IMG/VR virus record: IMGVR_UViG_2698536307_000001
DNA length: 6,014 nt
Reading direction: 5' to 3' (one strand)
Origin: a virus
Taxonomy: Duplodnaviria > Heunggongvirae > Uroviricota > Caudoviricetes
Shown: positions 3,001 through 6,000 of the stretch, piece by piece
Numbering within the stretch: the stretch's first letter is position 1
Layout of the letters: each line of letters opens with the position of its first letter
Made by a program: the position numbers

Positions 3001-6000
3001 TGATTTTACTTTTTCGGGGATCAGTCCCTTAAATCCGGCAGCAATGGGCGACCATGTAACATCCTCATAGTTATTTACCGCCCATGCCCCCCAGCGCTCA
3101 AGAACCTGCCGGATATCACGCATCAGTATCTTTACCCCATCCGCGATGAACCATAAGGACGCCATTGACGACGGCGTGCTTTTTCGCATCTTTATCATCA
3201 ATGTATTTTCTGACTGTAGCACGATTGCAGTTCAGTATTCTGGCGACTTCTGTCTGATTTCCCCTGGTGCAGATCAGTAATTCAGGTATCGTTTGAATTT
3301 TAGCATTCATCAAATGTTCTCCAGTTCGGTGATTTTTATCCCCACTCTACCGCCAGGCACTTTCACGCCGCGAATTACGCGAATGTCATCGAATTGCTCG
3401 TCGTCTTCCGCAAATCCGGCGTGGATAAGAGAGTCGAGTAAACCTTTCAGGATGTTATCGAGGTCGCGACGGCGGGAATCTGGTGGTTCAGCAATAATTG
3501 TGATGCGAAGTCGTGATTTAGTGAAAATGTCTAATCTGAGTTGCCGGATGATTTGCTGTACGTCTTTTCGGTATTTCTGGCCTTTATCGCTGATGTAGTA
3601 CTGGCTTCCCCGTCTTCGCCAGTAGGTATTCACCGTCGGCGGCCAGGGAAGCACAAACTCATATTCATTCATGACTTAATCTTCCCCTCCTTCAGCAATA
3701 TCGCCTGCGTCCTGATCACGCCTTCCAGGTGGTAAAGTCTGGCGTCGTTGTTGTCGAGAATTCGGGTGCGTCGGTCGATCTCCGCGTGGCAGTCACTACA
3801 AGCCCATGCACCGATCAGGTCGTCAGGCTTCATTCCCGTTCCGCAAATTCCAGCCATCCGGTAATGTGCCAGAACTGTCGTTTCAGGATTGCCATTGCAT
3901 ACGCCGTAAATCCGTACCTGGCATTCTCTGCCGCGCGCTTCTTTGCGTAGGTTTGCCATCATCTTATTCCTCGTACATTGAACTATCCGGAGTGACTATT
4001 AAATCTTGCACGACGTCTGAGCCACCGGACATCCCACAGGTGAGACGTATAATTGAAGGTTTTTACATCAGATTCGTTGGGGATTGGCCTGGGTTTATTT
4101 CGGGAGCGTTTCGTTGGAAGGTAATTGCAGTTTTCACAGACTATATCGGTAATGCTTCGTCGCTGTCGTCTCATTCATACCTCCTGTCGGTAAATCTGAC
4201 ACCCTGCTCCACAGCCCAGGAAGTTGTGTACTCAATCAGGCTTGCCATACGCTTCACGCTCATCTGCGCACTGCTTTCGCGGATATTGACGTATTCACCT
4301 TCAAGACCTGGCAAAACATCAGCTTCCTGTTTTGTAGCCACGGCATGACCGCTGATTAACAAAACTTTCCACTGTTCTGGTTTTAGCCATCTGCCGCACC
4401 ACTGAACCTGTCGGGAGATATCAGCGACCATCGCGTGAAATTTGGCATTTTGATCGAGATTCCGCTTGTAATCGGTGATGCGGATCGTAACGGGTTTGTC
4501 TTTATCGAGAGTTGTTGCAAGGATGGCGTTAATGGCGAATTGTTGCTGCTGCTTACTTCGGAGGAAGATAGTCTGGTTCATTATTCCCTCTCACTGGATT
4601 TTCCCAACAAAAAAGGAGCCGAAGCTCCTTTAGTTTCAGAATTCAAATTGTCTTGCCCGCAGGCTTTTCAGCATTGGCATGGCCCGCTGGATAATGGAAC
4701 TTGACATGTCGAGACGTGTTACCTCCCTTAGTAGCGGGTCTCTGTTCTTCGTCACCATGTAGATGGTCTCAAACGCAATGTCATACAGCTTGTTCGTGTA
4801 TGAGGAGTTCAGCTCTTTCATAATGGGATACAGGTGTTTGCTGAGGTCCTGGGCTTTTTCCATCCAGAGCTGCATGTAGCAAAGGAGGATGATTTCTTCT
4901 GCTGTGAATTGAGGCTGAATATGAGGTTGTGGCGGTATAGCGCTTTTTTCAGCTTCACGGTCCAGAATATCCAATACCCAGCGACGAAACTCTTTTGCTA
5001 TTGGAGTTCGAGCAAACATCGCTATTAGGTGAGCGCCGCGTAATGAGAAGATGCGAGTCTCTTGCTTGTCCCCTTTAGGATCGGTCAATTTGACCGAGGC
5101 TGTCATACCGTTTGTGAATTCATCTGCGTGACGGGCATAGATGCGTGTTACCGAGCTTTGATCTGCATATTGTAACGCGCTGGCTATTTGGGGGGCAGAC
5201 AACCACAGTAGACCATCTCGTTGAACGGTCTGGAATTGAACATTGTGGAATACAAGTTGAGTGCTCATAGTTTTATGTCCTTTCGATTCGTTCAGATCAC
5301 CCCGTGTTCAGCAGGGCGGTCGGGTACTTGAACACCGTCGAAAGTTCGGCCCGCATCCTTAGCCTTGCGGCTGTTTTTCGGTATACGCGCTACCCGACCA
5401 TATCTGAAAAATGGACATAAAAAATCCGCATGACTGACGGGCGCGGTTTCCGCTTTCGAAGGTGTGTTCAGCACCATGGAGCGGAATATATCCCCGTTAA
5501 TGCGGATTTGTCAAATCTGGCCTTAAAACTCGAATTGTCTTGCCCGCAGGCTTTTCAGCATTGGCATGGCCCGCTGGATAACGGAACTTGACATGTCGAG
5601 ACGTGTTACCTCCCTCAGTAGCGCGTCTCTGTTCTTCGTCACCATGTAGATGGTCTCAAACGCAATGTCATACAGCTTGTTCGTGTATGAGGAGTTCAGC
5701 TCTTTCATAATGGGATACAGGTGTTTGCTGATGTCCTGGGCTTTTTCCATCCAGAGCTGCATGTAGCAAAGGAGGATGATTTCTTCGGCTGTGAATTGTG
5801 GCTGAATCTGCGGCTGCTGTTCGGTTGGTGCTGTTTTTCCCTGGCTGAAATAGCAGTCTTCCAGTTTTTCGAATACATCCCACGCCCGATCGGTTTCGAG
5901 CATTTTTGCGTGACGGGCTGCGCCGCGTTCTGTCCAGAGGATGAGGGAGCGGGCATTTTTACCAACTAACCCGATTGTTTCGGGTCTGTTCTTAAACTCG

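Follow-up and report, generated by a model that had tools for sequence, protein, structure and literature searches.

We analyzed a 6,014-nt stretch of DNA from a virus of the Caudoviricetes (IMG/VR record IMGVR_UViG_2698536307_000001), referred to here as the window, with respect to a candidate promoter upstream of a Bro-N antirepressor gene. All genes in the window are on the minus strand, as are the features described below unless stated otherwise. The promoter belongs to a self-contained cassette, which consists of the promoter, a leader of ~210 nt, a 210-aa Bro-N::P22_AR_C gene (4636-5268; domains from Pfam, with matches to PHROG families named anti-repressor Ant), and a strong intrinsic terminator (AAAGGAGCUUCGGCUCCUUUUUUG; 4605-4631) that ends the cassette. 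Upstream lies the 3′ part of a second antirepressor gene (ORF6N and P22_AR_C domains; 5523-6014). Read along the minus strand, the stop codon of this upstream gene (UAA, 5525-5523) is followed by GGCCA, the palindrome GATTTGACAAATC, CGCATTAACGGGGA, and TATATT. The -35 hexamer (TTGACA, 5514-5509) lies within the palindrome and is separated from the -10 hexamer (TATATT, 5490-5485) by an 18-nt spacer, AATCCGCATTAACGGGGA.

Rfam places an RNA of the sRNA-Xcc1 family (RF02221) in the leader at 5310-5399, scoring 67.5 bits (gathering score, 53; E = 4e-11). The match is full length (model positions 1 to 87), and the RNA is predicted to form a three-way junction. Its P1 helix pairs 5399-5391 with 5326-5318 and is followed by GCCC. 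Two segments are predicted to be exposed, namely, the P3 loop (CUUUCGA, 5344-5338), here called b′, and the junction J3/1 (GUGUUCA, 5335-5329), here called a′.

Both flanks of Xcc1 contain sites that correspond to these segments. On the 5′ side, a hairpin, GGUG-CUGAACA-CACC (5461-5475), bears in its loop and stem the putative target a1 (UGAACAC, 5470-5464), and the putative target b1 (UCGAAAG, 5453-5459), the reverse complement of the P3 loop, follows. Next come a GCGG-AAA-CCGC hairpin and a weak terminator-like hairpin, CCGUCAGUCAUGCGG plus AUUUUUUAU (together 5417-5453), in the position of the leaky IsrK terminator; by the parallel with that system, transcription may terminate here (PMC4825925). 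A predicted anti-Shine-Dalgarno sequence, UUUUAUGUCC (5413-5422), can form 10 bp with GGACAUAAAA (5280-5271). On the 3′ side, the hairpin CCCUG-CUGAACA-CGGGG (5300-5316) bears the putative target a2 (UGAACAC, 5310-5304). A composite target (5278-5295) then combines a2′ (CUGAAC, 5295-5290) with b2 (UCGAAAG, 5286-5280), and b2 overlaps the Shine-Dalgarno sequence of the Bro-N gene (AAGGA, 5282-5278).

Complementarity and co-variation between Xcc1 and its flanks

In the window, the reverse complement of b′ is UCGAAAG, identical to b1 and b2, and the reverse complement of a′ is UGAACAC, identical to a1 and a2. The targets occur in the order a-b and the Xcc1 segments in the order b′-a′, an arrangement that fits simultaneous antiparallel pairing of both segments. 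The predicted duplexes of the Xcc1 segments have energies of -17.9 kcal/mol with a1b1 and -14.1 kcal/mol with a2′b2.

We compared 14 distinct leaders of this promoter type, which are otherwise roughly 80 to 97% identical. Five b sequences (UCGAAAG, UGCAAAG, AUACAAG, CAAGUAG, and GCGAUAG) and two a sequences (UGAACAC and CUCAAAA) are found among them, and a sixth b sequence, CAGCAAG, is found in L008, a locus from E. coli GF4. Each b type switches concordantly at the fixed positions of b1, b′, and b2, and each a type at those of a1, a′, a2, and a2′. The loop of the 5′ hairpin turns into CUCAAAA exactly where J3/1 turns into UUUUGAG. RNAalifold, applied to the 14 leaders, independently predicted a helix between the P3 loop and the bases that directly precede the Shine-Dalgarno sequence; five of its six pairs show double compensatory changes, each in 3 to 7 of the 14 sequences. 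The anti-Shine-Dalgarno helix is retained in the leader types of phages Nil2 and P13374 through wobble pairs and one doubly changed pair, and its enrichment across the family is moderate (duplexes of -14 kcal/mol or lower in 33% versus 14%).

A scan with the Xcc1 core pattern yielded 110 distinct elements in viral contigs and 103 in bacterial genomes sampled at one per species. We scored perfect complementarity of at least 7 nt, using flanks permuted between elements as controls. The P3 hairpin was complementary to the last 30 nt before the start codon in 71% of viral and 34% of genomic elements (control, 2%), with targets ending 8 to 12 nt before the start codon, i.e., on the Shine-Dalgarno sequence. 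It was complementary to the upstream zone in 83% of the viral and 87% of the genomic set (control, about 10%). For J3/1, complementarity to the upstream zone was seen in 64% (viral; control, 6%) and 72% (genomic; control, 8%), and complementarity to the first 25 nt after Xcc1 in 48% (viral; control, 3%) and 16% (genomic; control, 1%); within the viral set, 42% matched the interval from -34 to -6 relative to the start codon (control, 1%). The 40 to 55 nt immediately 5′ of Xcc1, an internal negative control, stayed at the control level in every complementarity test. Counts of G-U and A-C combinations around the complementary seeds (301 versus 274) were uninformative.

The position of Xcc1 relative to the downstream gene is also regular. 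A start codon with a Shine-Dalgarno sequence lies 30 to 79 nt after Xcc1 in 92 of 93 viral cases (86 at 40 to 69 nt), and most downstream start codons in the genomic set lie 40 to 60 nt after it. Pfam domains of 94 viral downstream open reading frames (ORFs) were KilA-N (16), Bro-N (13), AntA (12), P22_AR_N (11), ORF6N (11), and Rha (9), for 72 matches; those of the genomic set were Rha (11), P22_AR_N (4), SymE toxin (4), ORF6N (3), and others. Xcc1 lies upstream of antB in phages Nil2 and P13374, and in E. coli E110019, three antirepressor-type genes in succession each have an Xcc1 element ~40 nt before them, a placement shared by every gene of this type in the loci L001, L002, and L003. In Nil2, P13374, and the prophage most like the source of the window, the preceding gene bears c4-a1b1, isrK, and C4 elements in the equivalent place. 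Several viral loci (L018, L022, L023, L054, L060, L093, and others) have a conserved ORF of ~80 aa, rather than an antirepressor domain, directly after Xcc1, and in those contigs it may be a leader ORF like icd or orf45. In Xanthomonas, the core pattern precedes SymE toxin genes. The pattern also occurs beyond the Proteobacteria (L172-L291), in contigs assigned to Alistipes, Chitinophagaceae, Holophaga, Planctomycetota, Chloroflexota, and Lachnospiraceae.

P1 co-varies across the family. It has at least 9 contiguous pairs in 94 of 110 viral and 92 of 103 genomic elements, a count that is partly circular because pairing was used to locate P1. Each of the nine P1 positions shows three or more of the four Watson-Crick pair types, and 8 of them show all four. 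Alignment of 38 diverse elements with MAFFT, followed by RNAalifold, recovered P2 only, the 3′ halves being misaligned; hence, P1 was parsed directly. A C at position +3 after P1 is present in 83 of 94 viral and 82 of 92 genomic elements.

From these data, combined with the parallel to the P1 immI (c4) and IsrK systems, we put at roughly 75% the probability that the promoter drives an antirepressor cassette controlled by an Xcc1-type structured antisense RNA on the plan of those two systems. Transcription would start near 5477 (predicted start at 5477-5478, 7 to 8 nt after the -10 hexamer, by analogy with the isrK model start in the source-like prophage, L129). The leader RNA would then contain, in order, the 5′ hairpin with a1 and b1, the weak terminator-like hairpin with its U-run, Xcc1, and the a2 and b2 targets. 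The U-rich 3′ side of the terminator-like hairpin could alternatively pair with the Shine-Dalgarno region. Xcc1, acting in cis or once released from the leader, would pair with a2′ and b2 and block translation of the antirepressor. Short transcripts that end at the leader terminator would bear a1 and b1 and could titrate Xcc1 as decoys, which would relieve the block, so that the balance of short and read-through transcripts would set antirepressor output. The 7-nt a and b sequences would serve as addresses by which cassettes that are otherwise nearly identical differ from one another, as is the case in the heteroimmunity of P1 and P7. That regulation runs in this direction, with a1 and b1 as decoys, is what we infer from the arrangement.

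For the family as a whole, we consider it likely that sRNA-Xcc1 is a second, very widespread structural class of c4-like addressable immunity RNAs. These RNAs would reside in the leaders of potentially toxic genes (those for KilA-N, Bro-N, ORF6N, AntA, P22_AR_N, and Rha antirepressors and for SymE toxins). Their two hypervariable addresses, the P3 loop and J3/1, would match a 5′ decoy pair and a pair at the Shine-Dalgarno sequence and would set apart orthogonal immunity groups among cassettes that are otherwise nearly identical. Such cassettes are found in proteobacterial phages and integrons and, judged by the core pattern alone, in contigs assigned to several other phyla. If this is true, tandem antirepressor genes in lambdoid and Shiga-toxin-type prophages stay silent behind strong promoters without a dedicated repressor protein, and an RNA family that is annotated in many bacteria and taken as a virulence small RNA (sRNA) gains a concrete function. 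The triplicated 7-nt addresses would predict which prophages cross-regulate each other's antirepressors and hence cross-induce, and they suggest a compact natural scaffold for programmable translational repression.

The promoter, the palindrome over its -35 hexamer, and competing explanations

A preliminary description of the window had singled out TTGACA-18-TATATT as a near-consensus promoter poised to drive the Bro-N gene. Our consensus scan confirmed the match on the minus strand: the site ranks first of seven promoter-like sites in the window, with 11 of 12 matches. Its spacer is 1 nt above the optimum, and the TG of an extended -10 element is absent at TATATT. Sites with at least 11 of 12 matches arise in 7.8% of first-order Markov simulations of the window; by statistics alone, the match is mildly unusual.

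We gathered 53 related promoters by their spacer and -10 sequences, so that the -10 hexamer is not independently tested by this set but the -35 hexamer is. TTGACA, which was outside the search pattern, is present in all 53. In E. coli GF4 (L008), a leader of this type sits after a DNA polymerase gene (L008 2466-2506), and its promoter has TTGACA, an unrelated 18-nt spacer (TCCGCGATGACCAATAGG), and TATATT, with no dyad. Retention of hexamers and spacing around a replaced spacer is, at the level of sequence, the signature of selection on the hexamers and the spacing. The -10 hexamer and the spacing are also the same in the c4/IsrK cassette of the same prophage, whose promoter is TTGACAACGTCGCGTGTTCGGGGCTATATTCC and where the -10 hexamer precedes position 1 of the isrK model by 7 nt. 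Among the 110 viral Xcc1 elements, a site with at least 10 of 12 matches lies 50 to 170 nt upstream in 39 (38 of them at 80 to 170 nt), against a single case on the opposite strand. The record of phage Nil2 labels the homologous site "promoter sequence by homology," and experiments in Salmonella showed that the isrK promoter transcribes the downstream antirepressor gene, in the form of a read-through mRNA that is not translated (PMC4825925). Because the hexamers and their spacing are conserved, the promoter match appears to be more than chance. We conclude that the site is in all likelihood a real σ70 promoter of the antirepressor cassette; its orientation fits the Bro-N::P22_AR_C gene, as the preliminary description had proposed.

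In many other Xcc1 cassettes (e.g., L113, L118, L080, L088, L101, and L030), the -35 hexamer lies in or beside the loop of a GC-rich terminator hairpin, such as AAAGCCCCTTGACACCCAAGGGGCTTTTT. At those viral loci, the cassette promoter is thereby merged with a terminator of incoming upstream transcription into one compact insulator.

The 13-bp palindrome is present at 5517-5505, centered on the A of TTGACA, and reads the same on either strand. It had been interpreted as the operator of a repressor, and that repressor could be encoded elsewhere or could be the neighboring antirepressor-like protein, which would occlude the -35 hexamer in the lysogen. This explanation draws on a perfect dyad centered on the -35 hexamer and on the recurrence of the 13-mer, which is found in 30 of the 53 related promoters and also in another type of cassette whose spacer is unrelated. 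When the 46-kb source-like prophage region was searched for further copies, as had been suggested, the only other perfect one lay at the -35 hexamer of another Xcc1-type antirepressor cassette, one that precedes an AntA pseudogene. The two copies share a 16-mer (GATTTGACAAATCCGC), and hence the recurrence may reflect common descent as well as function. The window itself contains no further copies with up to two mismatches.

The dyad fares poorly when homologous promoters are compared. TTGACAA is by itself a 3-1-3 palindrome, so that only three additional pairs are required, and perfect palindromes with 6-bp arms and a 1-nt center number 3 in the window against 1.6 expected; the size class is at chance level in the window. 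The three bases at each flank of TTGACAA vary: 23 of the 53 promoters are otherwise identical and keep the intrinsic core alone (GATTTGACAACAC, GATTTGACAATGC, CGTTTGACAATGC, and AATTTGACAACAC), and there was no case of symmetric compensation in the outer arms among the 53. With arms lost in 23 promoters and no dyad in L008, the outer arms show neither conservation nor co-variation among homologs. No copy is present in the cI-cro region of the prophage, where the intergenic dyads are of a different type (ATAACC..GGTTAT). The palindrome stands before cassettes with different N-terminal DNA-binding domains (Bro-N and AntA), and its variants are independent both of the downstream domain and of the RNA specificity class (L160). 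Inspection by eye revealed neither a LexA box in the vicinity of the promoter nor a resemblance of the palindrome to the consensus sites of Fur, FNR, or CRP.

The search for a protein regulator gave a similar picture. We agree with the preliminary description that no repressor gene lies between the promoter and the Bro-N gene, and none of the Mnt/Arc type lies beside the promoter. The sole leader ORF (61 aa, 5292-5477) was rejected as a gene: it has no Pfam match, it overlaps the structured RNA, and its frame is broken by indels in relatives. The upstream protein, suggested earlier as a Rha-like candidate regulator, is an ORF6N::P22_AR_C protein and not Rha; the regulator, distant or neighboring in the earlier account, appears instead to be encoded in the leader RNA. 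We therefore regard the operator as unsupported by sequence and unlikely, the palindrome being probably the promoter's own symmetry plus inherited flanks. We propose that a strong constitutive promoter, with no need of a protein operator, is what control by RNA would lead one to expect. For genome scanning, a dyad over a TTGACAA -35 element is weak evidence for an operator.

A second explanation dispenses with the promoter. If the hexamers were inactive, transcription reading through from the upstream antirepressor gene or from the early-right operon would produce the leader RNAs and the Bro-N mRNA, and conservation of the sequence would reflect RNA structure only, e.g., a hairpin that terminates the read-through (AAAUCCGCAU...AUGCGGAUUU). 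There is indeed no terminator between the upstream stop codon and the promoter site, RNA from 5530 to 5400 folds into a long hairpin ending in the U-run (z = -3.1), and the spacer core GCATTAACGGGG is conserved in the subfamily. However, the hexamers and spacing persist where the spacer, which forms the 5′ arm of the long hairpin, has been replaced (L008, cassette B, and the AGTTGA type), the promoter signal is strand specific across the family, and the homologous IsrK promoter is experimentally active (PMC4825925). The long hairpin that joins the promoter spacer to the U-run was itself demoted, since its arms change without compensation in L002-A, Nil2, and L008. We judge this explanation quite improbable. 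The literature offers a third, in which Xcc1 is an independent trans-acting sRNA for distant host or virulence genes, its position before Bro-N is incidental, and the promoter merely drives the sRNA gene. In Xanthomonas campestris, Xcc1 occurs as a discrete RNA of 88 nt (PMC2996969), and later papers describe it as trans-acting and under HrpG/HrpX control. A role in trans would leave unexplained the fixed distance to the downstream start codon, the consistent class of downstream gene, and the co-variation of both exposed segments with sites of the transcription unit to which they belong, the Shine-Dalgarno sequence among them, and we consider it highly improbable as an account of this locus.

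Several observations weigh against control of the cassette by a c4-like RNA. We infer promoter activity, transcription start, termination, and processing at this locus from sequence and analogy. The terminator-like hairpin is weak, with an interrupted 5-bp stem, and was not called by the terminator scan. Pairing of a′ covers 7 nt only, and that of a2′ only 5 to 6 nt. The permuted controls of the family-wide complementarity tests, in which 34 to 87% of about 200 phage and bacterial elements scored against 1 to 11% of controls, draw on related sequences and do not give exact probabilities. The Rfam models for C4, isrK, and c4-a1b1 gave no match in the window at E values up to 1, so that the likeness to c4 is architectural and homology is undemonstrated. 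No small ORF of the icd or orf45 type lies between Xcc1 and the Bro-N gene; b2 and the Shine-Dalgarno sequence directly precede the 210-aa gene. Finally, the palindrome recurs perfectly at the -35 hexamer of a second antirepressor cassette and may provide an added layer of protein control.

Genomic context of the cassette

Beyond the Bro-N gene, the window continues downstream with ninB, ninE, a DUF1364 gene, rusA, ninH, Q, and a gene for a SASA/NanS-type esterase; this is the nin region of a lambdoid prophage. A prophage that occupies ynfG of E. coli AST198 contains a copy with 99.8% identity. Of 5,426 complete E. coli genomes, 117 contain the 254-bp intergenic leader, as do 53 phage records, most of them from Stx phages. 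It occurs in the nin region and also beside xis/int, and it precedes both Bro-N and AntA genes; these varied locations and downstream genes mark the leader as a portable module.

The P22_AR_C coding parts of the two antirepressor genes form a 314-bp direct repeat with 94% identity (4640-4950 and 5527-5839). Prophages of O104:H4 strains have a single gene here and lack an 887-bp unit made up of the final part of the P22_AR_C coding sequence, the leader, and the Bro-N domain. The repeats that flank this unit indicate that cassettes are gained and lost by homologous recombination. In the source-like genome, the upstream ORF6N gene has its own canonical c4-a1b1/isrK/C4 leader with a homologous promoter (L129 26125-26323, minus strand), just past the right end of the window. 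The source-like prophage thus carries, in tandem, two RNA-controlled antirepressor cassettes whose RNAs belong to different families, and at its opposite end (L129 10439-11214) there are two further cassettes of the Xcc1 type. Directly upstream of the antirepressor cassettes is a toxin-antitoxin cluster (L129 26515-28361) with RelE/ParE and a helix-turn-helix partner, a Doc-family toxin, and hokD with sok RNA.

Elsewhere in the window, a full-length STnc100 sRNA (RF02076, 165 bits) lies at 2145-2350 on the minus strand, between the genes for the Q antiterminator and the nanS-type esterase, with terminator-like hairpins around it at 2117-2138 (plus strand), 2175-2156 (minus strand), and 2644-2623 (minus strand). 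The related prophage JNEC-KY174 has stx1c genes inside the stretch that matches the window, and the window looks like an stx-less relative of an Stx1c phage.

Comparison with known systems

The published Xcc1 RNAs of Xanthomonas, Xylella, and APSE phages belong to the same Rfam family and have been treated as trans-acting virulence sRNAs or with the mechanism left open. Published notes locate Xcc1 before an ORF6N gene in APSE phages and before symE in integron cassettes of Xanthomonas. In Xylella it neighbors isrK and C4, and for Xylella fastidiosa Temecula1 one published table gives five copies in tandem, spaced ~381 nt from one another. A paper on vesicles of Shiga-toxin-producing E. coli (STEC) lists Xcc1 in genomes, without an assay, and a paper on sRNAs of enterohemorrhagic E. 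coli (EHEC) contains no relevant mention. In the searchable literature we found no account of Xcc1 a/b target sites, of their overlap with a Shine-Dalgarno sequence, or of the parallel with c4.

The preliminary description had compared the locus with P22 immI, where Pant is controlled through Mnt/Arc operators and sar RNA. The comparison holds insofar as a strong promoter precedes an antirepressor gene that must stay silent under tight control, and the P22_AR_C domain is common to both. The Mnt/Arc model itself does not carry over, in that the window lacks arc and mnt genes and the dyad is unconserved. In addition, the RNA regulator of the window would be encoded in sense, upstream of the gene, whereas the P22 RNA is antisense across the ant ribosome binding site. 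The plan of P1 immI (c4) and IsrK fits instead.

The isrK-orf45-anrP locus of Gifsy-1 (IsrK, RF01394; STnc1160) is similar in its promoter, TTGACA-18-TATATTCC, with CGGGG before the -10 hexamer. It also has a short 5′ RNA with a1/b1-type sites, followed by a U-run terminator (AACCGCGC...GCGG-U7 in L129 compared with AACCGCGC...GCGGAU6 in the window). Experiments on IsrK revealed a leaky terminator, an untranslated read-through mRNA, and activation of that mRNA in trans by the short RNA; STnc1160 is a stable processed RNA downstream that is complementary to IsrK (PMC4825925). The window differs in that its 5′ module is unrecognized by the isrK model, its downstream RNA is of the Xcc1 rather than the C4 type, and there is no orf45.

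For P1 and P7, Citron and Schuster reportedly described in 1990 an antisense arrangement of c4, icd, and ant in immI. The c4 precursor is cut by RNase P, aided by an RCCA tail. Rfam holds C4 as RF01695 (clan CL00128) and has a family named "a1, b1 targets of C4" (c4-a1b1, RF03163). The c4 RNA is cotranscribed with its target, and its a′ and b′ segments match a1/b1 upstream and a2/b2 at the ribosome binding site (PMC12197685). The RNA in the window, as a member of RF02221, is not of the C4 family and has a longer P2 with a conserved AAUACAAYACCCGNAAGGGGAAUA core; b2 lies directly on the antirepressor Shine-Dalgarno sequence with no icd-like ORF, and there are an additional anti-Shine-Dalgarno helix and an additional a2 hairpin. 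The likenesses concern the plan. The Rfam consensus structures of C4 and Xcc1 share a long P1, a tetraloop hairpin, a large-loop hairpin, 6 to 7 nt of single strand, the 3′ strand of P1, and an aCC tail. The C at +3 after the Xcc1 P1 resembles the RCCA tail of c4, and from the conserved CC tail the 5′ end of Xcc1 is possibly made by RNase P. As in P1 immI, a structured RNA precedes an antirepressor gene with which it is cotranscribed, two exposed segments are complementary to an upstream pair (a1, b1) and to a downstream pair (a2, b2) at the ribosome binding site, and the short addresses vary between otherwise similar elements, which in P1 and P7 is the pattern of heteroimmunity.

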